From IMG/VR virus record IMGVR_UViG_3300025000_002059, positions 23,960 to 87,959 of that record: a stretch of DNA of 64,000 bases; one strand, 5' to 3'. Positions 1 to 63,365 of the stretch are shown here, one piece after another (position 1 is the stretch's first letter; each line of letters starts with the position of its first letter). The notes below the pieces were generated by a model, which had not been told where the DNA came from, did no database searches, and saw only the letters and a list, made by a program, of their open reading frames with translations. The position numbers were made by a program, and so were the translations under genes. Source of the DNA: a virus.

Positions 1-1
1 T

Positions 2-322: not shown

Positions 323-344
323 TAAAGGAAGGAGATGGTTAATT

Positions 345-830: not shown

Positions 831-854
831 AAAGAGAGGGGATGCTTAAAAAAG

Positions 855-1349: not shown

Positions 1350-1401
1350 AAACTTCTTTCATAAGAAAGGGGAGAGGGGAGAGGGGAGCTGAGATAAAAC
1401 T

Positions 1402-1896: not shown

Positions 1897-1922
1897 AAAT
1901 TAAAAGTAAAGGAGTTTTCAAA

Positions 1923-2420: not shown

Positions 2421-2477
2421 TTCTATTATTTAAAGCTATACCCACAAGAACTCATCGCCGATTATAACCGACAAAAA

Positions 2478-2505
2478 AGAACCGTGGAATTATTTCCACG
2501 GTTCT
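2478..2505. terminator. Hairpin / probable terminator
   Basis: AGAACCGTGGAA-ttat-TTCCACGGTTCT inverted repeat with an upstream A-run. Confidence 0.5.
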
Positions 2506-2548
2506 AAGTATGCATAAATTGAAAAAATCCTTGAGAGAAGTTGATTAA

Positions 2549-2896
2549 ATGCTTTATTTCTCTATGTCTGAAATGATAGGCAAATCATCTTCAGAGTTCA
2601 ATGAAATAGTTGAGAATCTTATGCCTGATTCATATATCGTCTTTGAACATACTGGATGCTATATGTGTAAAGGGTGTGATTTCTGTACGGTGAGTTCTCC
2701 ATCTACGTCTATAGTGATGAGAAAATCAGAATGGAGATTAGTTTCAAAAAATATGTTCAATACTGAAGCGGAAGCTCAGGAGTATAGTGATCTTACTTCT
2801 AATGCAACACCTATGTTTACCTGTAATTCATTCACGTTTATAAGATCAGGAAGCACAGAAATTCTTAATTGTGTTTCGATTTGGATGAAAAATTAA
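2549..2896 (+). CDS. Hypothetical protein
   Basis: 115-aa ORF with a weak RBS. Confidence 0.35.
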   Translation: MLYFSMSEMIGKSSSEFNEIVENLMPDSYIVFEHTGCYMCKGCDFCTVSSPSTSIVMRKSEWRLVSKNMFNTEAEAQEYSDLTSNATPMFTCNSFTFIRSGSTEILNCVSIWMKN

Positions 2897-2944
2897 AACT
2901 CCATCCACCTTCCCAAAATATTGAAGAAAGGAGGTAATTCCTTT

Positions 2945-4555
2945 ATGAGCGATTTTCCTTTCGGAACTTATTTAGGATATAAATTCAATGGAGCTAATAG
3001 TTATGCACAGGTACCAGATAATGTAGCAATAGATCCAACTACTTACATTACAATTGAATGTCGATTTGCGCTTACCGTTCCTCTTCCATCACAAAGTTTT
3101 AATGCTGTTGAACTTGTACAAAAGATGGATGTTACAGTTACCACCAAAACTGGGTATGCAGTTTATTTAACAAAAGGCGGATCGTTAGTTTTTCTTCTCA
3201 AGGAATCAAATGATAGCACCTATAGGCAATTAGTATTTAGTGTTGGAACTACTTTCGATGATTTAAGATTACATGTTGTCACTTGTGTATACGATGGTTC
3301 CCATATCATAGCATATACCGATGGAGTCTTTGGGAGTCAAGTCGTTGCAACGGGATCAATCCAACAGGATACTGGTCAAAGTCTTAATATTGGTGGATTT
3401 AGAATAGGAACCAGTCCACCAAATACGAATTTCTTTAACGGTTTTATTGATGAAGTAAGAATATGGGATACGGCTAGGACACCAACGGAAATTAGTGATA
3501 ATGCTTGGAATCAACTTACTGGTGCTGAATCTGGACTAGTTGGGTATTGGAAATTTAATGAAAATAGCGGTACAGTGGCAACGGATTCATCGCCATCGGG
3601 AAATGATGGAACACTTTCCAACACTAAGCGATTAGCCTTAAATTATACTCCAGCAGTTGATGCTAATTTTTCAGCACAAAATCCTACATTAATTTTTGAT
3701 CAGATCGTTTCACCAACTGCATCTGTATCAACTTTTATAGCTTCCAATCCTACATTAATTTTTGATCAGACTGTTTCGCCAACTGCATCAGTCGCAACTT
3801 TTTCTGCTCAAGATCCAATAATTAAAGAAACGATTCAGGCAAGTCCTGCATCGGCAACATTCTCCATCCCAAACGCAACGATAATTGCCGGAGCTGTTAC
3901 GATTCAGGCAAGTCCTGCATCGGCAACATTCTCCATCCCAAACGCAACGATAATTGCCGGAGCTGTTACGATTCAGGCAAATCCTGCCTTTGCAGCTTTT
4001 ACGGCAAATTCAATTAAGGTAAATCTTGTTATCGAACCTAGCCCTTCAATAATAAATTTCGTCGTTGGAACTCCAACGATTAGATTAACTCAGCAAGCAA
4101 TGCCAAGTGTCATAACTTTAGCGTTACCACCACCGACTATCACAGTGGGAGCAGTAACGGTTCAAGCTACCCCAGCAGTAGCTACTTTTTCAGCCAATGC
4201 TATAACAACAACACTCACCATAAGCACTACCCCAGCAGTAGCTACTTTTTCAGCTAATTCACCAACTATCACAGTGGGAGTAGTAACGGTTCAAGCTACC
4301 CCAGCAGTAGCTACTTTTTCAGCTAATTCACCAACTATCACAGTGGGAGCAGTAACGGTTCAAGCTACCCCAGCAGTAGCGCTATTTACATTGCCAACTC
4401 CAACTATATTAATGGATCAAATAGTATTTCCTGATCCAGCGATAGCAACATTTAGTATTCCAACTCCCACAGTATTTGTTGTTAGAATTACGATCAGTTT
4501 CGGAGTTAAGATATTTAATGAGATCAATTACCATGTCATTATCGAAAATAGTTGA
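2945..4555 (+). CDS. LamG/concanavalin-like domain tail fibre or adhesin with a C-terminal 23-aa repeat stalk
   Basis: LamG motifs (FFNGFIDEVRIW, GLVGYWKFNE); RBS AAGGAGG before ATG 2945; tandem TIQASPASATFSIPNATIIAGAV repeats. Confidence 0.8.
   Translation: MSDFPFGTYLGYKFNGANSYAQVPDNVAIDPTTYITIECRFALTVPLPSQSFNAVELVQKMDVTVTTKTGYAVYLTKGGSLVFLLKESNDSTYRQLVFSVGTTFDDLRLHVVTCVYDGSHIIAYTDGVFGSQVVATGSIQQDTGQSLNIGGFRIGTSPPNTNFFNGFIDEVRIWDTARTPTEISDNAWNQLTGAESGLVGYWKFNENSGTVATDSSPSGNDGTLSNTKRLALNYTPAVDANFSAQNPTLIFDQIVSPTASVSTFIASNPTLIFDQTVSPTASVATFSAQDPIIKETIQASPASATFSIPNATIIAGAVTIQASPASATFSIPNATIIAGAVTIQANPAFAAFTANSIKVNLVIEPSPSIINFVVGTPTIRLTQQAMPSVITLALPPPTITVGAVTVQATPAVATFSANAITTTLTISTTPAVATFSANSPTITVGVVTVQATPAVATFSANSPTITVGAVTVQATPAVALFTLPTPTILMDQIVFPDPAIATFSIPTPTVFVVRITISFGVKIFNEINYHVIIENS
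3830..4380 (+). repeat. 69-bp (23-codon) intragenic tandem repeats
   Basis: Exact 69-bp duplication near 3830-3967; near-exact copies of a second unit at 4140-4380. Confidence 0.85.
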
Positions 4556-4567
4556 GGTGATGAAAAT

Positions 4568-4864
4568 ATGAAAGTGGGGGACGTGGGAGCACTCTTGATT
4601 TTCACGATTACTGATCCATCGGATACAGTCGTTGATCTAACAGGAGCAACAACGATTTCGTTATGTATCTATAATGGGCAATCGGTATCGAGTAATCCGA
4701 TGATGTTTTATAATGCCACAGGGGGACAATTATCATATCTTGTGGTCGCTGGGGATCTTCCCACGACTGGTGTTTATAAATTTGAAGTTCATGTAGGATT
4801 TGCGGGAGGTAGTGAATTTACATCGAGCAGAACATTTGATGTTGTGCAGCCAACTCTTTGTTAA
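4568..4864 (+). CDS. BppU N-terminal-like baseplate protein
   Basis: VDLTGAT ... G.LSY ... GDL.T.GVYKFEV motif. Confidence 0.6.
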   Translation: MKVGDVGALLIFTITDPSDTVVDLTGATTISLCIYNGQSVSSNPMMFYNATGGQLSYLVVAGDLPTTGVYKFEVHVGFAGGSEFTSSRTFDVVQPTLC

Positions 4865-4891
4865 AAAAAAAGAGAAGGAGGAAGATGTTCT

Positions 4892-5173
4892 ATGGATATC
4901 ATTATTAATGCTAATGATTGGCAGCTTATTATATTTTTTGTCCCAATCATTGTGGCATTAACAGAAGTTTTCAAGAAAATGGGATTGGATAAAAAATATT
5001 TTCCGGTTTCAAATATCATCTTAGGGATATTGGCAGCCTATTTCTTCGTTCCCACTGGCGAACAGGATATAGCATTAGCCGTTCTGATAGGAATAATAAT
5101 CGGATTATCGGCTAGTGGCCTATATTCAAGTGGAAAATCTACCATTGAGGAAGTCAAAAATGGCAAAAGTTAA
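4892..5173 (+). CDS. Holin
   Basis: Three hydrophobic segments; GLSASGLYS motif; basic C-terminus; end of tail operon. Confidence 0.85.
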   Translation: MDIIINANDWQLIIFFVPIIVALTEVFKKMGLDKKYFPVSNIILGILAAYFFVPTGEQDIALAVLIGIIIGLSASGLYSSGKSTIEEVKNGKS

Positions 5174-5198
5174 AGGCGGCATTTAGCCGCCTTTTTTA
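5173..5198. terminator. Intrinsic terminator between convergent genes
   Basis: AAAGGCGGC-attta-GCCGCCTTTTTT. Confidence 0.85.
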
Positions 5199-5213
5199 TT
5201 TTTCAATGTTAAT

Positions 5214-5477
5214 TTATTCATTTGCTGCAGCGACTATATGGAATTGACGATTGGTAAAATATTGTTCTATTTTTTCATCACTAGTAGACATTTTTGATTC
5301 CATTCTCGAAAGGGTAAAACTTGTCTTATCATGATCAGCTTTATTAACCTCAGTCAAGTGCTCTAGAGTCTTCAATATTTGGGTATTTTCTTTAACTTGG
5401 GATTCCAAACTATCGAACCGGGAATTCATTTTTTCAAATTGAGCTAAGACCAGTTCCTGAAACTTTTCATTATCCAT
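5214..5477 (-). CDS. Small coiled-coil protein, MDNEKFQ paralog 3
   Basis: RBS AGGAGGATAAAA and N-terminus shared with two neighbours. Confidence 0.75.
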   Translation of the reverse strand: MDNEKFQELVLAQFEKMNSRFDSLESQVKENTQILKTLEHLTEVNKADHDKTSFTLSRMESKMSTSDEKIEQYFTNRQFHIVAAANE

Positions 5478-5504
5478 TTTTTATCCTCCTGATTTGTTAC
5501 AGCT

Positions 5505-5783
5505 TCAAAATGCAGATATGGATCTTTGTTTGCGTTTTACAATTAAATCCACGACATCATTCTCGTTATCTATTAATTGTTTAGTCCGCAAAGCAATTAT
5601 ATCAATATTTCTATCAACATTATCAAATCTAATATCATGATCGATTTGTTTTTCCTTTATGATACATAGATCATTTTCCATCTTCTCAAAGCGCTGGTCC
5701 ATCTTTTTTTCCATCTTCTCAAAGCGCTGGTCAATCTTCTCAAATTGCTTTAAGACTAAATCCTGAAATTTTTCATTATCCAT
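5505..5783 (-). CDS. Small coiled-coil protein, MDNEKFQ paralog 2
   Basis: Heptad DQRFEKME repeats. Confidence 0.75.
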   Translation of the reverse strand: MDNEKFQDLVLKQFEKIDQRFEKMEKKMDQRFEKMENDLCIIKEKQIDHDIRFDNVDRNIDIIALRTKQLIDNENDVVDLIVKRKQRSISAF

Positions 5784-5821
5784 TTTTTTATCCTCCTATA
5801 ATTTGATTTAGCTGCCTTTTT

Positions 5822-6118
5822 TTATTCCCCTTCCATGACAAGAGAGAATTTTTTCTTAGAAAAATAATTTGTAACATCATCCTTGTTAGGTTCTCTTTGT
5901 AATCCTCTAATCTGAATAGCAACGAGTTCAATTTCGTCATGATGTTGCCTAGCGTGTTTGTCGAGTTTATCTAACTGATAAGAATTTGCAGAAAATTGTT
6001 GCTGTATTTCTCCGAAATGCCTTACTACTATTTCCTGAAATTTTTCATTACTTTCCAGTTTTTTATCAATTTTATCAAGCCTTTCAAGAATCAGTTCCTG
6101 AAATTTTTCATTATCCAT
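5822..6118 (-). CDS. Small coiled-coil protein, MDNEKFQ paralog 1
   Basis: Internal NEKFQE duplication; strong RBS. Confidence 0.75.
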   Translation of the reverse strand: MDNEKFQELILERLDKIDKKLESNEKFQEIVVRHFGEIQQQFSANSYQLDKLDKHARQHHDEIELVAIQIRGLQREPNKDDVTNYFSKKKFSLVMEGE

Positions 6119-6157
6119 CTTTTATCCTCCTATACTTTGTCCAATTATTATAGCATA

Positions 6158-6248
6158 TTGAAGCGGGATATGTTGACCATGTGTGTTCCATATGCACTGC
6201 ATTAGCCACGTCTACACACTCCGTCATTTTTCATATCCCGCGCTTCAA
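6158..6248 (-). ncRNA. Candidate ~90-nt structured sRNA
   Basis: Ends pair (TTGAAGC-GGGATATG / CATATCCCG-CGCTTCAA); inner TGAC/GTCA and GTGTGT/ACACAC stems; begins right after a sigA-type promoter copy. Confidence 0.4.
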
Positions 6249-6252
6249 CTAT

Positions 6253-6294
6253 ATACAGTTTAACATTATTCTATGAATTATGCAATACATATAT
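6253..6294 (-). promoter_or_regulatory. Repeated early promoter cassette, copy 1
   Basis: Minus strand TTGCAT-17 bp-TAAACT with upstream TG; homologous to six other copies. Confidence 0.7.
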
Positions 6295-6668
6295 CAAGTA
6301 CAATTACTTCCATTACGAGCTTTAAAATTACTTGATATCATCCCAATTCTTGCCCGGCTAATTTCCTGAGCAGCAGCATCAATTTTAGTTATCATTTCTT
6401 CTCCCCTATTAATTTTAAGGCCACAGATTCTACAGTAATTTGCACCGGGACCGTGTTCTTCATTTCGGCACCGTGGGCATTCATGCACCAGCATGAAGGT
6501 ACCTTCATTTATTTCTTTGTTCATATTGGTAAGGCGAGCAGCGATCCTTCTGTATAATTCCAACTTTTCCTGCAGCCCAGCCAGTAATGATTCATCCGGG
6601 GAGAAGGATATCTTAAATTCCAAATCTTCAATATAGGTTAGATAACGAGCGATATCAACTTTCAGCAT
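6294..6668 (-). CDS. Hypothetical protein with Zn-ribbon
   Basis: CPRC ... CRICG. Confidence 0.55.
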   Translation of the reverse strand: MLKVDIARYLTYIEDLEFKISFSPDESLLAGLQEKLELYRRIAARLTNMNKEINEGTFMLVHECPRCRNEEHGPGANYCRICGLKINRGEEMITKIDAAAQEISRARIGMISSNFKARNGSNCT

Positions 6669-16640: not shown

Positions 16641-17045
16641 ATGTCAAAATTTGAAGGCTTGGATAGTTTGTTCGAATTAATTAGTAATTCAATAACAGAT
16701 TCGCAGTATGACAAGGTGACAATCGGTAAGATTTCAGAAAATCTTAGGGTTCGATTTGCTAAGATGGGCAAGGAAAAAGAAATGATCGCAAGGGAAATGA
16801 AGACTAGAAAAGAAATACTCGAAGCGGAAATGGAGCTGAAACTATTCAAGGAATTCAGTGAACGAATAGAAGCGCACAGTGACGAAAAGGATGCTTGCTG
16901 GCTGGCGGCATCTAGGGAACTAAATATTCCAGAGGAAGGACGTTATTCTTGTAATTTCAAAGACGGAACGATTAGCGAGAAAGTGACCAAAAAAGATGTG
17001 CCAGATAATCCATTCACGAATCCAAATAAGAAGAAAAGATGGTAA
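16641..17045 (+). CDS. Hypothetical coiled-coil protein
   Basis: Promoter TTGATG..TATACT and RBS upstream. Confidence 0.6.
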   Translation: MSKFEGLDSLFELISNSITDSQYDKVTIGKISENLRVRFAKMGKEKEMIAREMKTRKEILEAEMELKLFKEFSERIEAHSDEKDACWLAASRELNIPEEGRYSCNFKDGTISEKVTKKDVPDNPFTNPNKKKRW

Positions 17046-17048
17046 AAC

Positions 17049-17246
17049 ATGATCAATATGATGCTTGCGAGAAGAAGGAGTAAGCTAACCCAGAAGCAAC
17101 TAGCTAAAAAAGTGGGGATAAGCAACATCCAAATAAGCCGATTCGAGACTGGAATATCGAGTCCAAAAGCGGATTTGCTACAGAAAATAGCGGTTGAGCT
17201 TGGAGTTAGTCTGGATTACCTAATGCAAGGGAGAAATGAAGAATGA
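17049..17246 (+). CDS. XRE-family HTH regulator
   Basis: LTQKQLAKKVGIS..QISRFETG. Confidence 0.9.
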   Translation: MINMMLARRRSKLTQKQLAKKVGISNIQISRFETGISSPKADLLQKIAVELGVSLDYLMQGRNEE

Positions 17247-17542
17247 TGCTAGTTAATGGAACTCCGGCTATTGCAGATATTAAGAGTCAGTGTTCAATTA
17301 TTCCCGGATTTGAATTTAACTACATCGCTTACAAGGGGAAAGTATTGTGGAGCACGGTATCGGCATCGCTTGATGATTATTTCATTTATCTTTATGACGG
17401 ACCAAATTATAAAAATGGGTGGGATCCATATACGGTAGCCTGCGTAGATGAACACGGTGATCTGTTTTACTACGGTCGCTGGACGAAATTAAAAAATGCA
17501 CTTGCATGGCTTGCGGATCCAAACATGCCAGAAAGGGACTAA
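17243..17542 (+). CDS. Hypothetical protein
   Basis: Translationally coupled ORF. Confidence 0.55.
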   Translation: MMLVNGTPAIADIKSQCSIIPGFEFNYIAYKGKVLWSTVSASLDDYFIYLYDGPNYKNGWDPYTVACVDEHGDLFYYGRWTKLKNALAWLADPNMPERD

Positions 17543-17547
17543 AGCAA

Positions 17548-18309
17548 TTGGAGACACTAGCGGTAATAAACCAAAAGGGCGGCGTAGCCAAAACTACAAC
17601 GAGCGTGAATATGGCGGCCATAATAGCCGCCATGGGATTCAAGACATTACTTATTGATGTGGATCCGCAAGCTAATCTTTCCCAATCCTTGGGCATTGTT
17701 GCCTTTGATATGGGAACACCTAATCTTTTCGAGGATCCGAAAATAACACTTAGCAAGTGCGTTAATGAAACAAGCATAACGAAATTATCCATTATTCCAT
17801 CGGACCTATCACTAGCACAAGTTGAATGGGAACTTTTGAAAACATTTAAAGGCACCAATACTTCTATTCTGCGAGACAAGATCAAGGCAAGTGAGGAAGA
17901 ATTTGATTATTGCATTATCGACTGCCCGCCAAGCTTAGGAATTTTCAGCCTTAATGCGCTCATTGCAGCGGACCGTGTGCTTATCCCGGTTGGTCTTGAT
18001 CCGTTCGGATTGATTGGAATAAAGTATCTAGTGAGCACGATCACTGATATCAGAATGAGTATAAACAAGCATCTCAAAATTCTGGGCATTGCACGGACCA
18101 TGTGGGATATGCGGCAGAGACTTGGACGAGAAATCAGCGAAAGTATGGAAAAGGATTATCCGGGAAAAGTCCTTGAGACGATTATAAAAATGAATGTAAG
18201 CGTCAAGGAAAGTGCTGTTGCCCAAATGCCACTGGTCATTTATGAGCCAAATGCTCCGGCTGCGCTGCAATACATTCAATTAACGAATGAAGTGTTACAG
18301 AGATGGTGA
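17548..18309 (+). CDS. parA: ParA/Soj partition ATPase
   Basis: NQKGGVAKTT deviant Walker A, DVDPQANL, IIDCPPSLG; TTG start after AAGGG. Confidence 0.93.
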   Translation: METLAVINQKGGVAKTTTSVNMAAIIAAMGFKTLLIDVDPQANLSQSLGIVAFDMGTPNLFEDPKITLSKCVNETSITKLSIIPSDLSLAQVEWELLKTFKGTNTSILRDKIKASEEEFDYCIIDCPPSLGIFSLNALIAADRVLIPVGLDPFGLIGIKYLVSTITDIRMSINKHLKILGIARTMWDMRQRLGREISESMEKDYPGKVLETIIKMNVSVKESAVAQMPLVIYEPNAPAALQYIQLTNEVLQRW

Positions 18310-18584
18310 GAAAACAGGGTAGGCCAAATATTCAAGCAATGCTGGAAGGAATCGATCTGGATAATAAGGAAGTACAGGAAGAAAAGCCAGATAAGTCAGA
18401 GGTAGAAGCGATAGCTGAACCGGACTTAAATGAAAAACTAAAGCGATGCTATGTAGTAACAGGATTTCATCTTGAAAAAATAATGCTTCTAAAGACCAAA
18501 AAATACAGAAAATATGATATGAGCGAAATTGTCTGTATGGCGATTGATTCATTTTTTGAAAAAGAAATGAACGGAGAGAAGTAA
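18303..18584 (+). CDS. Small putative centromere-binding adaptor (type Ib ParB/RHH-like)
   Basis: Overlaps the parA stop; acidic flexible N-terminus; C-terminal MSEIV..AIDSFF RHH-like helix. Confidence 0.55.
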   Translation: MVRKQGRPNIQAMLEGIDLDNKEVQEEKPDKSEVEAIAEPDLNEKLKRCYVVTGFHLEKIMLLKTKKYRKYDMSEIVCMAIDSFFEKEMNGEK

Positions 18585-18590
18585 TACAAT

Positions 18591-19349
18591 ATGATTGAAG
18601 AAATAGATGACCAAATATTTACCATGACAAGTGATCTCTCGGATGAAGAACTGGTCGATTTTGCAGCTGGGATATTTAAGAGCAATTGGAAAACATCATA
18701 CGATTACCAGAAAACGGATCCTATTATATTTCAAAGCTTGCCGATCGATGGGAAAATACTTAAGCATACCGATTTTTTGTCTTCGGCTGTTTATATATCA
18801 GAACTAACACAAAAGGCATTATCCTATAGATGGAATGAGATAGGAGGTCTAGCCGGGAAAGAACTGAAGGAGTGGGATGCCAATGGCGGCCTTTGTATTT
18901 ATCTATCCATTTTGCATTTTTGTTTACTGCTGGAAAGCAAAGCCGTAAAAGAGAATGAACTATGCTTAGTCCAAGGATTTTATAGGCATCCAACACACGG
19001 AATACTCAGTATATTCTCAAATCTGGGAACTCAATGCGGAGTTCATGCCTTTATAAGCGTTCAGGGAGCGGTTGTTGATTTTTCGATACAGCAAGAAGCA
19101 TCAACGTTCGAATTTGGAGAAAAAGAATTCATTATTGGCGATATCCCAGATGAGATGGAGATGGTCGGCTGGACAGAAGGAAAGCATTTAGTCAAGCAAT
19201 ATGCGCGTGAGATAGCCCGGAGCAGCGGACTTAATTATTTTGAATGGATTGAACAGCACAAAATCAATTCATATAAACTTGCAAGCAAAGAACTTAACAA
19301 AGAGCTTGTAAGGCTTAAAAGATTATATAAAAGTTTGGAGGATGAATGA
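18591..19349 (+). CDS. Hypothetical protein, possible transglutaminase/papain-like Cys-His-Asp fold
   Basis: GGLCIYLS ... GVHAFISVQGAVVDFS; directly upstream of the Tas-like gene. Confidence 0.5.
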   Translation: MIEEIDDQIFTMTSDLSDEELVDFAAGIFKSNWKTSYDYQKTDPIIFQSLPIDGKILKHTDFLSSAVYISELTQKALSYRWNEIGGLAGKELKEWDANGGLCIYLSILHFCLLLESKAVKENELCLVQGFYRHPTHGILSIFSNLGTQCGVHAFISVQGAVVDFSIQQEASTFEFGEKEFIIGDIPDEMEMVGWTEGKHLVKQYAREIARSSGLNYFEWIEQHKINSYKLASKELNKELVRLKRLYKSLEDE

Positions 19350-19352
19350 GCG

Positions 19353-20408
19353 ATGGCTAGGAAAAAGAATGAAGAAGAAGTCACCCTAACCAATCAGGAA
19401 ATGATTCAAAAAGAAGAGCGCCATAGAAAAGATTTAGAAAATAAACTAAAGGCATCGGAAGCATCAGCGGAAGATCAGAAACAATTTACTCCCTTGGTCA
19501 AACTTACTAAGGATTTAAGAAGCGCAAGCCGGACATTGAATCCACAAGAAGCCCGGTATCTAGTGGACAGGTACTACCAAATCCAACAATACCGGACCAG
19601 CGCCAAGAATCAGATTAGAGCATCGGAAAGCGAAGAACCAAATGAAGTTATTGTCTGGTTTGCAGAGAACTTTGAGGAACTGGAGAAGAACATAAAAAAG
19701 GCGCTGGATGCTTATACGAGTAGTCATCCGGTCGGAGCTTGGGCCAAATCGGTGATCGGCGTAGGTCCGACATTCGCAGCCGGGCTTCTAGCGCACATTG
19801 ATGCGAAGAAAGCACCAACAGCCGGAGCCGTGTGGAGTTACGCAGGATATAATCCAAGTGTTGAATGGTTAAAAGGTCAGAAGCGTCCATGGAATGCTGA
19901 TTTAAAAAAACTATGTTATCTCATAGGTGAATCATTTGTAAAGGTTTCCAATAATCCTAAAGATATCTATGGTAAATTATATCGCCAAAGAAAAGATCAG
20001 GAGATAGCGAAGAATATAGCGGGAGAATTTGCGGAACAAGCAATATCAAAGCTGGAGAAATTCAAGATAGGTAAAGATACTGATGCTTACATATGGTATG
20101 CAGGATGTCTGACTGAAGATAAAGCCAGAGCAATTCTTCTGGGTGAAAAATCCGGATCAGCCAAAAGTCTAGCGGGAGAAAAGGATTCTGGGATTCGTAT
20201 GCTTCCACCAGCACATATCAACGAGCGGTCCAAGCGATATGCTGTTAAAATATTCCTAGCCCATTTTCATGAGGTCTTATTTGAATATGAATTTGGGACC
20301 AAGCCACCAAATCCATATGCTATCTCAATCCTGGGACATGCACATAAGCTGGAAGTTCCAAACTATGAAGTATTTAAAAAAGCGATGGAAGAAGATCCGT
20401 CACTATAG
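19353..20408 (+). CDS. IS110/Nop-domain RNA-binding protein lacking a nuclease domain (TIGR-associated TasA-like)
   Basis: Coiled coil (LVDRYYQIQQYRTSAKNQIR), then SVIGVGPTFAAGLL..I, VWSYAGYNP, WNADLKKLCYLIGESFVK and HINERSKRYAVKIFL; no DEDD/RuvC N-terminus; abuts a repeat array. Confidence 0.85.
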   Translation: MARKKNEEEVTLTNQEMIQKEERHRKDLENKLKASEASAEDQKQFTPLVKLTKDLRSASRTLNPQEARYLVDRYYQIQQYRTSAKNQIRASESEEPNEVIVWFAENFEELEKNIKKALDAYTSSHPVGAWAKSVIGVGPTFAAGLLAHIDAKKAPTAGAVWSYAGYNPSVEWLKGQKRPWNADLKKLCYLIGESFVKVSNNPKDIYGKLYRQRKDQEIAKNIAGEFAEQAISKLEKFKIGKDTDAYIWYAGCLTEDKARAILLGEKSGSAKSLAGEKDSGIRMLPPAHINERSKRYAVKIFLAHFHEVLFEYEFGTKPPNPYAISILGHAHKLEVPNYEVFKKAMEEDPSL

Positions 20409-22292
20409 CCAAGTTACTTTGATTTTAAACAAAGCCATTGAGCGAACCATCAGACAAGAGAGTATCAACAATAGAAGAGTGAGCCAACAAGCGTGAGCTA
20501 ATTGCATCCCATAAAAGCGAGCCACTAACCATGAATTATGCAACGAAAGAAAGCGAGCCATAGCAACAGATTACCCCATCTCGACGAGAGCGAGCCAATG
20601 GTCTATGAAAGCAGAATTGACCATCAAACAAGAGTGAACCGTGTGCAAAGATTGTATCAATTAGGAGAAGTGAGTCATTAGATTAGAATAGCACCATATC
20701 CGCAAAGCGAGCCGTTAGATCAGAAATTTATTTTATTCATTCCCATTGAGTGAGCCAAGAGCCAAGGTATACGAAAGCACCAACAACAACGAGCGAGTCA
20801 TCCGATATGAAATTAGATACAAATGCGTTGAGCGATCCAAAATGAATTGTAGCGAAACAAAGCGAACCATGGGTATGGAGAAATACCATTTATCTCCGAG
20901 TGAACCAAAAAATTAGAATAAATCGCCAAAGTAGAGTGAGCCATATGAAATAGATTAAATCACACTCTAAGAGCGAGCCAAGCTAACTTAATATAAAATG
21001 AACGAACCAGAATGCTTGATTGGGACAAAAATAACGAGTGAGCCACTAAAGGGAATTATAATATTTAATCAAAAAATGCAATGAGCGAAACAAAATATTT
21101 TGATCGAACCATTATAAAGGAGATATTCCGGGGATAACGAGTGAGTCATGCAGGAAAGCGTGATGGGATGTTGGCTTAGAAGCAGCCATGGCTGGAAGGC
21201 TGATTGCTTTATGCAATCCATCTAAGGAGTGGGGCGATGGCTATTTGTGACTTGATTGTTTTTCCACATTATTAGCAATCTGAACCCGATGAGGGAAAAT
21301 GAATGTGGTAGTGTTACGATGATACCGATGCATTTGTAGTGACAAGGTAACATAAAAGCTGCAAATGAAGGAAAGCGTATAGCTTGGGAGTTGCTTTAGA
21401 GTTACACTTGGTTATCCCTTTTGGCGTAATAGCACACCATCACATGAGTCATGCGGAATGATTGAACGAAATAGTGAGTGAACCATCAATAATGACCGGA
21501 ACATTGTGTCAGAGTGAGCCACGATATAAGAATAGCAACATTAATAGTTGGAGCGAACCAATCAAGCCGAAAATTAACATTCCCTATGAGTGAGTCAGGT
21601 ATATTTATGAAAAATATGAACGAGTCGAAGGAAGTAAGGGTACCAATCTCATAGAGCGAGCCATAAGGAATAATGGCAACATCACAGGAAAGCGAACCAC
21701 TAATAGCGAGTTACATCATTATACGAGAGTGAACCGTCAGAAGCGAAACTAAGTATCATATATTCAGAGTGAATCGGGATATTGGAGAGCACCACACATA
21801 CTGAGTGAATCAGGACTATGGAAAGCAGCAGATAAGCCGAGTGAGCCGAATAATGGGATAGCACCACGCTGGTTAAGCGAGCCATTGAAGGAAATAGGAT
21901 CAGAAATGCAGAGCGAGCCGCAGGATGTAAAAGCACAATAAAAAGAGAGCGAGCCAGACCAACCGAAAGCAGTATTGAGCGAGAGCGAGCCAGAGGAAAA
22001 AGATTAATTCATTGCAGGACAACGAGCCATAACTACAGATTAACGACAAGATTATAAGAGCGAACCAAAATCACGCTTAAATAAAATTGAAACATTAGCG
22101 AGTGAGTCATAGGACTTGATTGAATCACCCCATCGGAGCGATCCATATTAAGCGAGAATAACCAGCGTAGGTTGAGTGAGCCAAATGGAAGCGAGAGTAC
22201 CAATTGCATAGAGTGAGCCAGAACTGGTGATTAAAATCATTAATGCGAGAGCGAACCATGGCAAGAGAGGACCACAAATATAGAGTGATTCA
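20407..22292 (+). repeat. TIGR-type dual-spacer guide-RNA array 1 (~43 units), interrupted by a structured RNA
   Basis: ~36-nt period: edge AG(T/C)GA(G/A)CCA, 9-nt spacer, loop e.g. AGAG(T/C)ACCA, 9-nt spacer. Confidence 0.9.
21160..21443 (+). ncRNA. Structured RNA mimicking the 23S rRNA L11-binding domain (H43/H44), with two inserted helical domains
   Basis: GGATGTTGGCTTAGAAGCAGCCAT ... CATCTAAGGAGT ... GCGTAATAGCACAC, closed by GTGATGG/CCATCAC; flanked by TGAGTCATGC direct repeats. Confidence 0.75.
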
Positions 22293-22309: not shown

Positions 22310-22594
22310 ATGAGAGATTTAATCAGTTATGATGAGATGCTAGAAAACAAGGATAAGCTAAAAACCATATTCCTCGATTTCAAGGCACGGTATTATGCTT
22401 TGGGCAAGAAGCAGAATGGAAAATTTAAAACGAGTGATCTTGACCGATTAATCCGGGAGACGATCGCAGAATTAAAAGGCAAAGAAAAACTTATTGCCGA
22501 AGGATTTCTGGAATTCGTGCTGGGATTTTTATTCAACAGCTCGTGGGATTCTACGAAGGCTTTTAATTCTGTAGATAAAATGTTTAACTGGTAG
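22310..22594 (+). CDS. Hypothetical protein (cargo between arrays 1 and 2)
   Basis: GAGG RBS right after the final edge repeat. Confidence 0.6.
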   Translation: MRDLISYDEMLENKDKLKTIFLDFKARYYALGKKQNGKFKTSDLDRLIRETIAELKGKEKLIAEGFLEFVLGFLFNSSWDSTKAFNSVDKMFNW

Positions 22595-22601: not shown

Positions 22602-23030
22602 TAGCCAAAACAGATGATAGTATCACGGCATCCAAGCGAACCATTGACTATCGCCGGAAAGCGAGCCAATTCACACGACTAAAAACAAGATACTGAAGCG
22701 AACCAGAGGAAAAGACTATTTCATTACAGGAAAGTGAGCCGGACCAATTGATAAATACATTAAATGAGAGTGAGCCACGGTTAGGGACAATTTCAATTAT
22801 TAGAAGCGAGTCAAACAGATAAGATTTCCATTTAAAGAGAGCGATCCATTTCAGATGACAGTAACAGCCTTTACGAGTGAGCCAGAAAATAGGATAGCAT
22901 CATTATGCGAAAGCGAGCCAAGTGCATGAAGATATAAACCATTAAACGAGATCGAACCAGTAGACAAGGAAAGTATCATGATCATAAAGTGAGCCAAACA
23001 CCATGATTAGTAACATTATGGACAAGCGGA
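22602..23030 (+). repeat. TIGR-type array 2 (~12 units)
   Basis: Same edge/loop periodicity as array 1. Confidence 0.88.
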
Positions 23031-23057
23031 CTAATACACCCTTGGGAGGTGGAACGA

Positions 23058-23495
23058 TTGGACCACGAAATATCATACCCAGAAAAGAAATGTCCCGGAT
23101 GCGGAAATGATAATCTACTGGATGGACCGCGAGGTGGACTATCTCAAAATGTCTTATGCCCGGAATGCCAAAGAGAATGGAACTATGGACCATTTGGGTA
23201 TGAAGAAATCAGCCCGGCACGAACATACTTATACCGAGTTGTGTCTCCAAAACTTGATCTGCGGATCATCCCAGTAGGATGCAAGCCGGGATGCTGTGGG
23301 GAAACATATCCATGCATTGATGAGGTAGCCATGATTATAGAACAGGGCAATCTTGCCTTTATGATTCACGGCGAGCACGTTAAGGAGCAGTTAGAGAAAC
23401 TAGAATACAGAATTGATGTAACGAGTCATAACAACATACCGATTGGAATGTATATATCTGAAAAGGGATCAAAAAGCGTGTACGAAAGATTTTAG
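23058..23495 (+). CDS. Zn-ribbon hypothetical protein (cargo between arrays 2 and 3)
   Basis: CPGC...GPRGGLSQNVLCPEC; GGAGGT RBS and TTG start. Confidence 0.6.
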   Translation: MDHEISYPEKKCPGCGNDNLLDGPRGGLSQNVLCPECQREWNYGPFGYEEISPARTYLYRVVSPKLDLRIIPVGCKPGCCGETYPCIDEVAMIIEQGNLAFMIHGEHVKEQLEKLEYRIDVTSHNNIPIGMYISEKGSKSVYERF

Positions 23496-23712
23496 CCAGC
23501 ACATGAGAAAATCCAGAGATCGTGAGCGAATCAATTGATGAAAAAAGCAACATTACTCCGGAGTGAACCGATTGAAATGATGATCCATTGACCAAGAGTG
23601 AGCCAATATCTATGAGCCACCCAATTTAAAGTAGCGAGCCATCCCAAAGGATTTTTCAATTCCACGGAAGCGAGCCATTATAAGGCGATATTTCAGTCCA
23701 CGGGAGCGATCC
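23494..23712 (+). repeat. TIGR-type array 3 (~6 units)
   Basis: Begins at TAGCCA, overlapping the upstream stop codon. Confidence 0.88.
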
Positions 23713-23752
23713 AATTCACCAGTCTAATATTTCTTGGAGTGAAAATATTTTT

Positions 23753-24127
23753 ATGGATAGACTGCGAAATGAGCGAAAGGCCAACGGTTTATGTGCTCAA
23801 TGTGGAACTAAACTTGATAGGATTGGGAGATATTGCAAAAAATGCAATACTTCAGGGAATATTAATAAGCACAAACGTTGCCTAAAGCTTTATGCAATCG
23901 GTTTATGTACTACTTGCGCTGAGCCATTAGACAGAGATGGTTGGTTTTGCTCAAGGTGTGCAAACAACTTAAAACTTAGGGCAAGAGTTAGAGACACAGA
24001 AAGAAGATTAAAAGGATTATGCGTTCAGTGTGGCGCTTGGGCAGATGGGTATTCCTATTGCCAACGCTGCAGGGATATGAGGATGGAGAGATATCACTCA
24101 AAGAAAAGGTCCATTCACCAAGAGTGA
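23753..24127 (+). CDS. Multi-Zn-finger protein (three GLCxxC...CxxC repeats), cargo between arrays 3 and 4
   Basis: Repeated GLC..C.......YC..C. Confidence 0.7.
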   Translation: MDRLRNERKANGLCAQCGTKLDRIGRYCKKCNTSGNINKHKRCLKLYAIGLCTTCAEPLDRDGWFCSRCANNLKLRARVRDTERRLKGLCVQCGAWADGYSYCQRCRDMRMERYHSKKRSIHQE

Positions 24128-24349
24128 GTGAGCCAATATTGGATTTTTACATTAGAGAAAGAGCGAATCAAACAGATATTATTTTTCAGATACCAAGAGT
24201 GAGCCAATTATGATGACAGAAACAACCCAAGAAAGCGAGTCAATGAATACGAACTTTATCAACAGATATGAAGCGAGCCATAACAATGAAGTATAACCAT
24301 CATCCAAGAGCGAGCCTAAGCAATTGATCACCCCACACTCACTGAGCGA
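24108..24349 (+). repeat. TIGR-type array 4 (~6-7 units)
   Basis: Same periodicity; first unit overlaps the 3' end of the Zn-finger gene. Confidence 0.85.
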
Positions 24350-24985: not shown

Positions 24986-25330
24986 ATGTTTTTTAAGCTT
25001 TGCAATCATAGAGAAATTGATCCAGATGAAAGACTTAGTGTTATTATTGGAAGTGGATCGGATGATGAATTTGAAACTCACAATCCTTTAAATTTATTTG
25101 GGGCAATTATTAATGATTATGATCCGGATTCAGGTGTTCCGATTATTCCTCTTGTCGTTGGACAAATTAGTCCGGGAATGTTGATGTCTTATCTATCGGC
25201 CATGACAACAATTGCTGTCGAGATGTTAAAGGATACAGATATACCGAGAGAAGTATTAAAGGAATTATTGCAAAGAGCTGTTGATGAAGGACTGAATGGA
25301 AAAATTGTTCCGTGCAAGTGCCAGAACTAG
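24986..25330 (+). CDS. Hypothetical protein
   Basis: AAGGAG RBS. Confidence 0.55.
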   Translation: MFFKLCNHREIDPDERLSVIIGSGSDDEFETHNPLNLFGAIINDYDPDSGVPIIPLVVGQISPGMLMSYLSAMTTIAVEMLKDTDIPREVLKELLQRAVDEGLNGKIVPCKCQN

Positions 25331-25521
25331 CCGATAGAGATATCGGCTTTTATTTTGTTCAAATATGAATGTAACAAAATATGTGAATTGTTACATTGGG
25401 GGCTTAAACATGGATGTGGCAAGGATGGTAATAATTGAATGTAACTTAGGGCGTAGAAATGATACATGGAATGTAGTATAATGAAGGACAAGCTTAATAA
25501 AAAGAGAGGAATTAAAAATTC

Positions 25522-34750: not shown

Positions 34751-34759
34751 TGCTATAAT
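34751..34759 (+). promoter_or_regulatory. Extended -10 promoter for array 5
   Basis: TGCTATAAT about 20 nt upstream of the first AGCCA. Confidence 0.6.
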
Positions 34760-34779: not shown

Positions 34780-37116
34780 AGCCATGAACTGCGATTAAAT
34801 CAATTATTGTAAGCGAGCCAAGAATAGAGATTTTACAGAATTTTGAGCGAGTCAACTAGGTAGATTTTTTCAAATGTCCAAAGCGAACCAAAGCGCTTGA
34901 GAGCGCCAAAATTGGCAAGTGAACCATCAGTAGCAATAGTGCCAAACTATCAGAGTGAGCCAAAGTATTTGAGTTAAAATCATAAAAAGGTAAGTGAGTC
35001 ATCGAACCAGATTATAAACATTGAAGAATAGCGAACCATTTTTGATTAAGAGAGTGAGTCAAAGTTTCCGATCGTACCTAAGTAAGGGAGCGAGTCCAAA
35101 GGTTTTTCAGTGTACCAGAAAGAGGGAGCGAGTCATACCAAACAGAAAAAAGAACGAACCACGAACATAGACTTATTCATTTTACGAGAGTGAGCTAATA
35201 ATGCCGATAGCAACAAAAACAGTGAACGAGCCAAGAATACTGAGAGTACCATATTTCGAGAGCGAGCCAGTAAGATGGGTATTTCCAAAAAAGAGAAGCG
35301 AGCCAAGAACTCTGATATCCCAGACCAAGCAAGCGAGTCAAGGTTTCCGACCATACCCAAACGTAAGGGATCGAGTCAAGGTTTCCGAGTGCACCGAAAT
35401 TAGGGATCGAGACATGATAGCTGATTTAATCGTAAATAATGATCGTTTCAATCCACGCACCAGAAATGAGGTGCGACAATAAATATAAGTGAGCCAGCTG
35501 CATTGAGATTACCAATGTAGAGAAGCGAACCAACGAATGTGATTAGTTTACAATTGAAGAGTGAACCACACGATAAGATGTCACCGTATGTTTGGAGTGA
35601 GCCAAAGAATTAAAAAAACATTATATGCAAGCGAACCAAAAACCTTAGACAATATCAAACCCCAAGAGTGAGTCAAGCTTTCCGAGAGGTCCAGAACGGA
35701 TGAACGAATCATGTTTCGTGAGAGCACCAGAAACATGGAGTGAGCCAAGAACACTGAGATACCAATTGCGAGAGAGCGAGCCAATAACTACGATCGATCA
35801 CTGAAAAGAAGCGAACCAGTGTTGCTGGATTTGAGCAAAGTCTCTGAGTGAGTCATGGAGACAGGATAAGATCCAAATATGTCATGACTTTCTATTAGTC
35901 GTGTGGGATTGAAACATAGCTGCTAAACGAGCCAAAATATAGAATAGCAACATTAATAGTGGAGCGAACCATGGCGAATGATAATGACAATTTCCATTGA
36001 GTGAACCATTAGGAATGAGAGAACCAGTTAAATGAGTGAACCATGTATCGTGAAAAATTTCAAGCGTTACGAGTGAGCCAACAGAGTTAATCATTACAAT
36101 TGTTCAGAGCGAATCATTAAACTTGATTGTATCAGAGGTTAGAAGTGAATCAATGGGACGGAGAGTACCACAAACCATTAGTGAGCCATTCAATCGGAGA
36201 GCACCGTAAAGAACGAATCATAAGCGGCGAAAGAATCAGAACCTCGAAGTGAACCATGTATTGTGATATTTCATAATCTGTGAAGTGAGCCATCATTAGG
36301 GATTGTTTCAATTATTAGGAGTGAACCACTTTTTGTGAGAAACACAGCGATATAAGGGTGAGCCAAGAACACCGACAGTCAACAAAGCCACAAAGCGAAC
36401 CAATGTTGGAGAGAGCACCGTGCCATTCGAGTGAACCGATGTCGCACCATTTTTAAACAGAGCGAGCCAATGACGATGGAGAGCACCATGATCACGGAGC
36501 GAACCACCATTAGGGATAGTAACATATTTTTGGAGTGAGCCGAGGATACTGACATTTAAACCAGATGGAAAGAGTGAGCCAAAGTATCCGAATACAACAA
36601 CCTTCTAGAGCGAGTCACCCCACAAGAGCACACCCATGTCCGTTAAGCGATCCATCAAGGCATAGAGCACCATCAAGCATGAGTGAATCGACATTCGTGA
36701 GATACCCAATACTTGTGAGTGAGCCAGCATATCTGAATATTTCAATAGTCGTGAGTGAGCCACTGCCGCAAGATAATACCATGTCCATAGAGCGATCCAC
36801 TACGCAAGATAGCACCACAACTGTAGAGTGAACCATCGGGGAGAATTAATCATCGGTTAGAAGTGAGTCATTAAACTTGATAGCACCATATCCGCAAATC
36901 GAGCCAATCATGCTGAATATTTCAATGAGCCAGAGTGATCCAATTATTTAGATCGAATCAATAAATCTGAGTGACCAAAAATGAACAAAGAAGTCTTACA
37001 ATATGGCAACATATGTGATAATGTATGGATAAGCCAACGCTGCTGGCGAACTTGACTAGAGTACCAGATGCCAGCAAAACGAGTCGACAATGATGAGTGA
37101 CCAACAATAATGAGCG
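34780..37116 (+). repeat. TIGR-type array 5, stand-alone (~60 units, degenerate 3' end)
   Basis: Same edge/loop repeats, e.g. AGCCA AGAATACTG AGAGTACCA TATTTCGAG AGCG. Confidence 0.9.
35445..35477 (-). CRISPR. Solitary type I-C CRISPR repeat embedded in array 5
   Basis: Minus strand GTCGCACCTCATTTCTGGTGCGTGGATTGAAAC; single copy; no cas genes in window. Confidence 0.75.
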
Positions 37117-37325
37117 TAAAAATTGAACAAAAAAATGACCTTCGCGGAGTTTGCACCTCCCGAAAGTCGTGGCTAAAGACCAAACTCTTTAGACTTGAAA
37201 TTTAAATCTAAGGACGGAACCCTTAGACTTAAGTACTTAATTTGGATTAAGTATAACAAAGGATACTCAACGAATCAAGGGGGACAAGGGTAGTATCATT
37301 TGTAATATTTTCAAATAAAAGTAAA

Positions 37326-37362
37326 GTCGGGTCAGTATCTTTAGCTGGCCCGGCTTTTTTTG
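37326..37362 (+). terminator. Intrinsic terminator downstream of array 5
   Basis: GTCGGGTCAG ... CTGGCCCGGC followed by a T-run. Confidence 0.65.
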
Positions 37363-47898: not shown

Positions 47899-48257
47899 TC
47901 AACCGAGCTGAGAGCACCATGAGAAGCGAACGAACCATGGAACAAGAAAAAAGCGTTATGTAGAAGTGAGCCAAATTTAAAGAGTGTACCAATGAACATG
48001 AACGAACCAAAAGGTCGGACTGAAACAATTCAAAAGAGTGAGCTATCTTGAATGGATTGAGACATTGAATGGGAGCGAACCAAAATCATTAAAAAATCAT
48101 GTTTAGTGAGTGAGCCAAACGAATGGAGAGCACCGCATTATAAGAGCGAACCATATAGATGGAGAATCCCAAATAGCAAGAAGTGAGCCAATACTCCTGA
48201 GAGTACCACATTCCGAGAGCGAGCCATGACGATGAGATAAACATTAGAAGGTGAGCG
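47897..48257 (+). repeat. TIGR-type array 6 (10 units) between pseB and the ParB-MT-A70 gene
   Basis: e.g. AGTGAGCCA ATACTCCTG AGAGTACCA CATTCCGAG AGCGAGCCA. Confidence 0.9.
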
Positions 48258-58648: not shown

Positions 58649-58668
58649 GTCTGGAAAGAAGTGGATAT

Positions 58669-60847: not shown

Positions 60848-60891
60848 ATTTTGGGCAAAATTGAAAATGATTTACAAAAGGAGTTGAGGTA

Positions 60892-63325: not shown

Positions 63326-63365
63326 AATTAAAAAACCATATTTATTTTAGGGGGGTAAAATTTTT

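Follow-up and report, generated by a model that had tools for sequence, protein, structure and literature searches.

TIGR-Tas systems were first described in 2025 (Faure 2025, Science, PMC12045711), and the phage locus analysed here is a TIGR-TasA, an already known kind of system (Faure 2025; Xu 2026). It resembles FpTIGR of Flavonifractor plautii (PMC12045711), which is also phage-carried and combines a Tas protein with the Nop domain alone with an array that lies directly downstream, opens with a truncated edge repeat and closes both repeats with a CCA box C. Two other nuclease-less Tas proteins have been studied experimentally: MbTasA shows RNA-guided binding of target DNA in EMSA and represses transcription (bioRxiv 10.64898/2026.09.09.750476), and PlTasA binds target DNA by EMSA and cryo-EM (bioRxiv 10.64898/2026.08.11.744272). 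Unlike these two, the TasA described here uses dual-repeat guides and keeps the loop. Compared with published dual-repeat TIGR-TasA systems, the present locus stands apart in its size: its eight arrays extend over 28 kb and together hold ~130 units. Published arrays hold 'most often 5 to 15' units, and the mean for dual-repeat arrays is ~16 (65,635 tigRNAs in 4,126 arrays, Xu 2026). It further differs in a loop interior that is almost free, in the frequent occurrence of 35- and 37-nt units, and in an extra N-terminal helix of ~45 residues in the protein.

The best structural matches to this TasA are SpTasH of Salicola phage CGphi29 (PDB 9w03, 9w04 and 21kl) and TaTasR (9mty). All three share the coiled coil and the Nop domain, and the terminal pairs of the TaTasR tigRNA are the same as those found here. 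SpTasH and TaTasR, however, have an HNH or RuvC nuclease domain at the N-terminus and cleave both strands of the DNA, whereas a helix alone occupies that place in TasA. The bridge-RNA recombinases of the IS110 family (IS621, 8wt6; ISCro4, 9t56) possess a related RNA-binding Nop-like domain, but the present locus lacks a DEDD/RuvC-like domain and transposon ends, and holds many-guide arrays instead of a single bridge RNA. Nuclease-free CRISPR systems (type IV and type V-M; cited in PMC12045711) are likewise borne by mobile elements and interfere in a guided, non-cutting manner; their proteins are unrelated, however, they read one strand by means of one long spacer, and they depend on a PAM.

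The window, a 64,000-nt stretch covering positions 23,960 to 87,959 of IMG/VR record IMGVR_UViG_3300025000_002059, comes from a tailed phage of groundwater and sediment. Its genome of ~82 kb consists of 81.6 kb of unique sequence and a 6,356-bp terminal repeat, which together make up the 87,959-bp record. GenBank holds no phage close to this one at the DNA level, and no tRNA genes were found in the window. Leads to the host come from a 50%-identical TasA in a Eubacterium MAG, from the nearest clusters of the upstream protein orf252, which are mostly from Bacillota, and from a type I-C-like CRISPR repeat. The features of the locus are collected in Table 1.

Table 1. Genes, arrays and RNA elements of the TIGR-TasA locus, in coordinates of the window.
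Feature	Position	Strand	Basis or remarks
ParA-type partition ATPase	17506..18309	+	Pfam AAA_31 1.5e-50, CbiA/ParA 6e-21
orf252, 252-aa protein directly upstream of tasA	18591..19349	+	stop 3 nt before tasA start
tasA, 351-aa nuclease-less TIGR-associated protein	19353..20408	+	profile and structure-model matches
TIGR array 1	20407..21148	+	21 full edge repeats, 20441-21148
Structured RNA, ~300 nt, between arrays 1 and 2	21150..21450	+	sibling conservation, predicted pairs
TIGR array 2	21477..22292	+	20 edge repeats (<=1 mismatch, to 22258), plus degenerate ones
TIGR array 3	22635..22996	+	11 edge repeats
TIGR array 4	23525..23713	+	6 edge repeats
TIGR array 5	24127..24317	+	6 edge repeats
Terminator-like hairpin with T run	25329..25348	+	consensus scan only
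TIGR array 6	34812..35340	+	18 edge repeats; 14 kb from tasA
TIGR array 7 (largest)	35488..36942	+	39 edge repeats
Terminator-like hairpin, 14-bp	37323-37357		after array 7
TIGR array 8	47925..48226	+	11 edge repeats; 27 kb from tasA

The TasA protein matches PHROG 4285 (5e-48), and a search of PDB sequences with the family profile recovered TasR (9mty, 1.7e-24), TasH (3.6e-14) and IS621 (8e-6). Its AlphaFold2 model (pLDDT 85) comprises an N-terminal helix (~1-45), a coiled coil (~64-123), a Nop domain, and a C-terminal loop containing Y322 and H329. When this model was submitted to Foldseek, the best 10 matches were all TasH or TasR. VIA-align gave Z-scores of 17.1-18.8 to TasH/TasR over 193-225 residues at 21-26% identity; the scores were ~12 for IS621 and ISCro4 and did not exceed 7.3 for other folds. 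The structural alignments begin at residue ~64 of TasH and residue ~112 of TasR, past their nuclease domains, and residues 1-60 of TasA are modeled as one helix and a linker. No HNH or RuvC nuclease domain is present, and no Pfam nuclease profile matches the protein. By its predicted structure, TasA is a member of the Tas family with a coiled coil and a Nop fold, of the TasA subtype without a nuclease. The IS110/Nop relationship of the original prediction is thus placed more precisely, on the Tas Nop fold (Z 17-19, against 12 for IS110), and its reading of the protein as devoid of RuvC/DEDD and HNH domains is borne out by both Pfam and structure comparison.

Sequence conservation in the family agrees with this assignment. 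TasA is 50-57% identical to the bulk of its family, which counts more than 3,000 proteins, shares invariant motifs and lacks a DEDD domain. In a 29-sequence alignment the invariant columns include G136, G138, P139, A143, G144, W161 and G165, and the motifs GVGPTFAAGLL and VWSYAGYNP, which had been quoted from the sequence as signs of an RNA-binding core, fall on such columns. Furthermore, Y322 and H329 align with Y289 and H296 of SpTasH, the residues that process pre-tigRNA (PMC13421893), and the two members of each pair stand 7 residues apart. H329 is invariant among the 29 homologues and Y322 is found in at least 90%, which supports retention of a Tyr/His tigRNA-processing pair with a putative catalytic role. 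An assignment of TasA to the IS110-family transposases was rejected: Pfam Transposase_20 gives only a partial match at residues 132-171 (17.6 bits, below the 21.3 cut-off), DEDD_Tnp_IS110 gives none, the DEDD domain is absent, and the structural alignment with IS621 is limited to residues 125-320 of the latter.

The tasA stop codon (TAG, 20406-20408) overlaps AGCCA (20407-20411), the 3' part of a truncated edge repeat, and the gene therefore runs directly into array 1, as first noticed in the bare sequence. An opening unit of 38 nt leads from the truncated repeat to the first complete edge repeat (20441). Scanning the window for AGYGARCCA with at most one mismatch returned 151 edge repeats on the + strand and 9 on the - strand; 132 of the 151 fall in eight same-strand clusters, and the remainder of the 87,959-bp record contains no further array. 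The original prediction of 130-140 units in six arrays was accurate in its total of about 130, but the clusters number eight. The sequence TGCTATAAT lies at 34751-34759, upstream of array 6. Array 8 is flanked by a sugar epimerase-like gene on one side and a ParB-N/methyltransferase gene on the other. A 94-aa ORF upstream of array 3 occurs in this phage alone when compared with its siblings.

The predicted ~36-nt period holds: the edge-to-edge spacing is 36 nt in 47 cases, 37 nt in 25 and 35 nt in 7. About one third of the units are 35 or 37 nt long, which we counted against the TIGR reading. To resolve the unit position by position, logos were built from the 47 36-nt units of this genome and from 206 units of five phages. 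They display the expected alternation of conserved and variable blocks: the edge repeat at positions 1-9, a variable block at 10-17, 'GA' at 18-19 (G in 40 and A in 44 of the 47 units), weak conservation at 20-25, 'CA' at 26-27, a second variable block at 28-35, and G or A at 36. The variable 9-mers described earlier are accordingly real as blocks but amount to 8 nt plus a conserved G, or to 9 nt plus G in many of the 37-nt units. Likewise, the looser loop repeat does end in CA, but conservation is confined to its first base and its last two bases.

In both kinds of repeat the initial A is preceded by G or R and the end is CA, extended to CCA in the edge repeat. From the sequence, the (G)A start can be recognized as a box D-like anchor and the (C)CA end as a box C-like one. 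The former reads GA, where TaTasR has UG, a second point counted against the TIGR reading; according to PMC12045711 (section 8), the box D motif may diverge provided that the edge and loop repeats do so jointly. With edge and loop repeats, two spacers, a unit of ~36 nt and a position next to a tas gene, the arrays have the composition of dual-repeat arrays. No covariation was found between the two spacers, A and B, of a unit.

The edge repeats themselves covary between neighboring units. Across the five phages, base 6 of one edge repeat and base 3 of the next form 121 C-G, 209 U-A, 23 U-G and 2 C-A combinations (Fisher p = 4e-68), and the association is not significant at lags -1, 0, 2 and 3. 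The phage studied here contributes 40 C-G, 36 U-A, 4 U-G and 0 C-A to these totals. A second pair is found between base 7 and base 2 of the next repeat, with 208 G-C, 80 G-U, 14 A-U and 9 A-C. The TasR cryo-EM structure contains two terminal tigRNA pairs that are the same as these covarying pairs (PMC12045711, section 8), and the covarying positions are, on sequence grounds, the terminal pair of the processed 36-nt tigRNA. With bases 6 and 7 paired to bases 3 and 2, respectively, of the following repeat, the functional RNA would be one unit with its ends taken from neighboring edge repeats. It follows that processing must cut every edge repeat between its bases 3 and 6. Together with the Nop fold and the Tyr/His pair, this covariation at the unit ends supports the identification of the locus as TIGR-TasA made in the original prediction.

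A structured RNA of ~300 nt is embedded between arrays 1 and 2, flanked on both sides by the edge-like repeats GAGTCATGCRGAA. Three of its blocks resemble the GTPase-associated centre of 23S rRNA, and 26 nt of the window (21164-21189) are 100% identical to E. coli 23S rRNA. The element is conserved, likewise between arrays, in the sibling phages G002 (91%) and G003 (80%), with compensatory changes in 10 of the 78 predicted pairs. Neither the window nor the insert at 21.1-21.5 kb has a match in Rfam, and the insert folded alone has z = -1.2.

Upstream, the genes are ordered HTH-ParA-orf93-orf252-tasA in a block that is conserved in four of four sibling phages, with the exception of orf252 in G003. 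The ParA gene is the first large gene of this block and provides context outside the TIGR system proper. The orf252 protein matches no Pfam or PHROG family, and falls only into unnamed, mostly Bacillota clusters of a protein atlas. It is 51-56% identical to its sibling counterparts and adjoins tasA in three of the four. It is not recognisable as a ParB. Promoter and terminator calls are consensus matches whose frequency is no higher than in shuffled sequence, and with this qualification the hairpin at 25 kb is the first strong + strand candidate 3' of tasA and arrays 1-5.

In all four sibling phages arrays follow tasA, and each genome has 77-112 edge repeats grouped into 5-8 clusters. The same edge repeat occurs in relatives whose TasA is 39-54% identical. 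Among the five phages, 127 pairs of units differ at no more than 3 of 18 spacer positions, against 5.4 in mispaired controls. To measure selection on the guides, orthologous units were picked on one spacer and divergence was scored on the other. The per-site difference was 0.11-0.21 for the other spacer and 0.41-0.44 for the loop interior (Wilcoxon p = 5e-9), so that spacers change 3-4 times slower than the loop interior between siblings. This slower change argues that the guides are under purifying selection, and the guide set appears to be largely inherited and kept by selection. The higher conservation of the spacers than of the loop interior further suggests that the guides are selected against stable targets, and argues against a model of fast, CRISPR-like turnover. 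Shared and unique units are interspersed and show no polarity along the arrays. In one guide family, spacers A and B have been swapped between sibling phages, a single event that fits the published symmetric roles of the two spacers. None of the papers searched reports that TIGR spacers are conserved.

The original prediction proposed that spacer A joined to the reverse complement of spacer B be searched against sequence databases. We searched both this geometry, A+rc(B), which is favoured by the 8-nt 3' overhang and the 'C-5' rule, and rc(A)+B, which fits one sentence of PMC12045711; neither led to a natural target in the phage, its siblings or public collections, a third point counted against the TIGR reading. 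The 18-mer of a guide common to all five phages has 2 IMG/VR matches in either geometry, and its 72 matches in metagenome contigs were set aside as chance-level, being scattered over ~30 unrelated contexts, mostly abundant marine or gut genes. The 16-mers of the swapped guide family matched once in one geometry and 21 times in the second. Of the latter matches, eleven lie on viral contigs of 4-24 kb that are homologous to one another; no other guide matches these contigs, and the matches too were attributed to chance.

These searches bear on what the guides are for. If they regulated the phage's own genes through sites in its own genome, as a timing or lysogeny switch, one could point to the repression of transcription by TasA proteins (bioRxiv 10.64898/2026.09.09.750476), to the presence of arrays in several transcription units, early and late, and to the conservation of guides among siblings. 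Yet in both geometries the own 88-kb genome lacks any site that one of the 87-92 parsed guides would match with 0 or 1 mismatch, and at 2-3 mismatches the number of matches equals that of mispaired controls. Neither the search of 375 guides against the five phage genomes with 8/9-nt spacers and gaps of 0-2, nor a geometry-free search, in which the two halves had to fall within 30 nt of each other whatever their orientation, produced an excess. The lack of own-genome targets argues against control of the phage's own genes, which we regard as very improbable. The guides might instead be aimed at alleles of sibling phages, with the phage's own copies escaping through silent changes. Exact 16-mers in the rc(A)+B geometry were indeed observed 2 times in sibling genomes, where 0.22 were expected (shuffle test, p = 0.025): two G002 guides match 16 of 16 positions at sites present only in G003 or only in G004. 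However, the A+B same-strand geometry, a control that should not work, gives an equal or larger excess (3 observed versus 0.21 expected), and 1-mismatch matches are not enriched (7 vs 11). Homologues of the two sites are missing from the other phages, and as targets the sites are unproven. In addition, every known sibling carries the TIGR system itself, and guides are conserved rather than divergent between siblings. The test has low power because IMG/VR holds only four whole relatives, and targeting of siblings seems clearly unlikely.

An explanation without guides would take the repeats as centromere or iteron DNA sites for the ParA module and the Nop-like protein as a decayed IS110 transposase. 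The first arrays do lie 2 kb downstream of parA, and the below-threshold Transposase_20 match points in the same direction. This is nevertheless extremely improbable, given that the repeats keep to one strand (151 vs 9), that the Watson-Crick and G-U covariation of neighboring edge repeats is a constraint on RNA and not on DNA, that the protein belongs to a large family with invariant motifs and no DEDD domain, and that further arrays lie 14 and 27 kb away from parA. The preferred reading is a dual-repeat TIGR-TasA system whose targets are probably outside this phage lineage, on the host chromosome or on other elements that share the host.

By homology with characterized Tas proteins, the arrays would be transcribed as long precursors, with arrays 1-5 co-transcribed with the ParA-orf252-tasA block and arrays 6-8 expressed from their own or neighboring promoters. 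No RNA data set was found to contain the locus. A TasA dimer would bind the box motifs of edge and loop repeats, and Tyr322 and His329 would cut the precursor into ~36-nt tigRNAs. Each tigRNA could then guide the dimer to 16-18 bp of DNA, presumably with no PAM needed, and its spacers A and B would pair there with opposite strands. Having no nuclease, the complex would stay on the DNA and block transcription or replication, and we infer that the system performs programmable DNA binding without cutting. Taken as a whole, a dual-repeat TIGR-TasA system of a tailed phage that works in this manner on outside targets is a reading we hold with high confidence. A further-reaching proposal, speculative and on balance doubtful, is that the ~130 guides form an inherited, multiplexed 'CRISPRi-like' programme of takeover or exclusion, directed at many conserved sites of the host or of co-resident elements, with the 23S-like RNA released as array cargo. 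The guides would then not be a fast-turnover adaptive memory, and Tas processing sites on either side of the 300-nt RNA may release it.

As a whole, the locus adds no new kind of system but provides a useful case for guide number, covariation and spacer conservation. With 132 units here and 77-112 in each sibling, the guide set is among the largest so far. Covariation among the units of one array reveals the terminal pairing of the tigRNA and its predicted processing window without an experiment. Furthermore, the conservation of the guides narrows the search for their targets to the host, or to elements living in the same host.

The tasA reading frame is preceded by a ribosome-binding site (GGAGGA, 9 nt upstream of the ATG), and its stop codon TAG (20406-20408) falls within AGCCA, the closing bases of an edge repeat. 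The gene thus runs into its array as the original prediction had described, with the first full edge repeat at 20441. At the sequence level, Pfam returned only Transposase_20, below threshold, while PHROGs placed the protein in family 4285 (5e-48); more than 3,000 proteins are detectable as members of its family. Searching solved structures with a 29-member profile of that family recovered TasR (PDB 9mty, 1.7e-24), TasH (3.6e-14) and IS621 (8e-6).

Structure prediction agreed with this assignment. The AlphaFold2 model (mean pLDDT 85) found TasH or TasR structures as all of its best ten Foldseek matches, and VIA-align gave Z-scores of 17.1-18.8 over 193-225 residues to TasH/TasR, about 12 to IS110 recombinases and no more than 7.3 to unrelated helical proteins. 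The alignments begin past the HNH domain of TasH and past the RuvC domain of TasR, and a single helix occupies the place of the nuclease domain. The protein is therefore the nuclease-less TasA form, and both the Nop core and the TIGR-TasA architecture that had been proposed are borne out. It does not qualify as an IS110 transposase because the DEDD domain is missing. [quoted passage not shown] A TasA 97% identical to this one, from another assembly in a public collection (P0002), is interrupted precisely at Cys188, within the conserved motif LKKLC|YLIGESF, by a 229-aa intein with Hint domains.

Coordinates of the TIGR-TasA locus and associated features in the window
Feature	Position	Strand	Description
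Block ending in tasA	16641-19349	+	Cro/C1-type HTH, ParA ATPase, 93-aa protein, 252-aa protein without known function
tasA	19353-20408	+	ORF, 351 aa
Arrays 1-5	20.4-24.3 kb	+	Five clusters after tasA; a 300-nt insert and three small ORFs lie among them
Structured RNA	21150-21450	+	About 300 nt, between arrays 1 and 2
94-aa ORF	22310-22594	+	Between arrays
148-aa ORF	23049-23495		
124-aa ORF	23753-24127	+	Between arrays; double zinc ribbon
Arrays 6-7	34.8-36.9 kb	+	Two clusters, AGYGARCCA scan
CRISPR-repeat-like copy	35445-35477	-	In the gap between arrays 6 and 7, on the opposite strand
Array 8	47.9-48.2 kb	+	One cluster, AGYGARCCA scan

Allowing at most one mismatch, AGYGARCCA occurs 151 times on the plus strand of the window and 9 times on the minus strand. 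The 132 copies that fall in clusters agree with the roughly 130-140 units counted by hand in the original prediction, and they form eight clusters rather than six; a scan of the rest of the record found no further cluster. Neighboring edge repeats are spaced by 36 nt (47 cases), 37 nt (25) or 35 nt (7), and the unit logo confirms the anticipated period of alternating conserved and variable blocks: positions 1-9 hold the edge repeat, 10-17 vary, 18-19 are a conserved GA, 20-25 are almost unconstrained, 26-27 read CA, 28-35 vary again, and 36 is either G or A. Edge and loop repeats both open with (G)A and close with (C)CA, as expected of the box D and box C motifs to which the halves of a symmetric dimer bind (PMC12045711).

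Two bases of the edge repeat itself are variable, base 3 being C or T and base 6 being G or A, and within one repeat they are independent (p = 0.45). Across this phage and its four siblings, base 6 is instead tied to base 3 of the repeat that follows 34-38 nt downstream (121 C-G, 209 U-A, 23 U-G and 2 C-A; p = 4e-68), an association that is absent at lags of -1, 0, 2 and 3 repeats. This genome alone gives 40 C-G, 36 U-A, 4 U-G and no C-A. A second, weaker pair links base 7 with base 2 of the next repeat (208 G-C, 80 G-U, 14 A-U, 9 A-C). These are the two antiparallel pairs that join the 5' and 3' ends of the processed tigRNA in the TasR cryo-EM structure (PMC12045711). The covariation therefore indicates that the arrays act as RNA, that the functional unit extends from one edge repeat to the next, and that the processing cut lies between edge-repeat bases 3 and 6. 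With its own closing pair in each unit, the edge "repeat" is a chain of half-sites evolving in step with their neighbors.

The IMG/VR record (87,959 bp, of which the window spans 23960-87959) has an exact direct terminal repeat of 6,356 bp (record positions 1-6356 and 81604-87959, window 57645-64000), and the unique genome is therefore 81,603 bp; genome-wide tallies count sites within the repeat twice. Its genes include a terminase, a portal protein, RecE/RecT-like proteins and several methyltransferases. The sequence is present in public groundwater and sediment metagenome runs from three studies, and GenBank contains no phage with close DNA similarity to it. Four whole relatives are available in IMG/VR (82-88 kb, TasA 77-79% identical), all with tasA followed by arrays (77-112 edge repeats in 5-8 clusters each) and with distant arrays in the same relative places. 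Edge repeats are likewise AGYGARCCA-like near TasA relatives of 39-54% identity.

Gene order is conserved as HTH-ParA-orf93-orf252-tasA-arrays-orf148-orf55-orf92-orf114, with orf252 moved in one sibling. The block ending in tasA contains no ParB-like "TasParB" and hints at a plasmid-like prophage in which partition and TasA are linked. Among the small ORFs between arrays, those of 94 and 124 aa lack a counterpart in any of the four siblings, all of which keep the 148-aa ORF, with its match split in two pieces in siblings G002 and G003. The single copy of GTCGCACCTCATTTCTGGTGCGTGGATTGAAAC, which we take to resemble a type I-C CRISPR repeat, is present in this phage and was found in none of its siblings; it may act as a solitary-repeat anti-CRISPR RNA and offers a lead to the phage's host.

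The structured RNA between arrays 1 and 2 is 100% identical at 21164-21189 to E. coli 23S rRNA, within helix 43 of the GTPase-associated center, and its CATCTAAGGAG and GGCGTAATAGCACAC are similar to the two rRNA blocks that follow. GTGATGG/CCATCAC closes the element, which is kept between arrays in G002 (91%) and G003 (80%), shows 10 compensatory pairs, is lacking in G001 and G004, and has no match in Rfam. Since edge-like repeats GAGTCATGCRGAA flank it, Tas processing might release this RNA.

Comparison of 375 parsed units yielded 127 pairs with at most three differences over 18 spacer bases, and for about 31% of the units in this phage a sibling has a counterpart this similar; units with and without one are intermixed, with no polarity. 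To avoid circular reasoning, orthologous units were picked on one spacer only and the remainder measured. The other spacer showed 0.21 differences per site (0.11 after removing chance pairs) against 0.44 (0.41) in the loop interior (Wilcoxon p = 5e-9), and change per position was 0.06-0.26 in spacers and 0.28-0.53 in the loop interior. Spacers are thus the constrained part of the unit, and the guides would therefore serve stable targets.

Some units have been duplicated and have diverged within the genome. The guide family combining NNGTTAGGG with ATTATTAGR (window 22769 and 36284; G002:82587; G003:14169) has its spacers A and B exchanged in two of the five phages. Either order would address the same DNA site, and the exchange agrees with published work in which swapped tigRNAs remained functional. 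Whole units also set environmental variants apart: in a sediment variant (run X5), 39 additional bases follow 35146, a place where the window contains a truncated 26-nt unit (35127-35152), and groundwater runs contain several other joints skipping whole units. The stretch missing at 35146 is bounded by the short direct repeat AAACAG, which points to loss of whole units by recombination between short repeats.

Guide matches did not exceed chance in the phage's own genome, which argues against self-regulation, nor in the sibling genomes; guides aimed at rival relatives therefore gain no robust support in this lineage, although four relatives make a weak test. The suggested spacer-pair search of phage and metagenome collections, run in part with two guide families against IMG/VR and the JGI metagenomes, likewise gave nothing above chance. 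The conserved guides fit best with targets common to all five phages, namely the host or elements sharing that host.

In the mechanism we propose, tasA would be translated from the ParA-orf93-orf252-tasA block, with arrays 1-5 probably on the same long transcript, ending at a putative hairpin at 25329. TGCTATAAT lies at 34751, upstream of array 6, and a strong hairpin follows array 7 at 37323. By analogy with other Tas proteins (PMC12045711; PMC13421893; bioRxiv 10.64898/2026.09.09.750476, 10.64898/2026.08.11.744272), TasA dimers would bind the precursor at the box motifs and cut it with Y322 and H329, each keeping one unit of about 36 nt. The complex would then open a 16-18 bp DNA site, its two spacers pairing with opposite strands, and, having no nuclease, would stay on the DNA and block transcription or replication.

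All sequence-testable defining features of dual-repeat TIGR-TasA are present, and the locus is a member of this published class. Its differences from published examples are of degree: about 130 guides in eight dispersed arrays, loops flexible in length and sequence, an additional N-terminal helix in TasA, a box D of GA where TaTasR has UG, and a ParA module in place of the ParB-like partner in the systems of Faure et al. The value of the locus lies in the covariation, the evidence that the guides are under selection, and the rRNA-like RNA embedded among the arrays.
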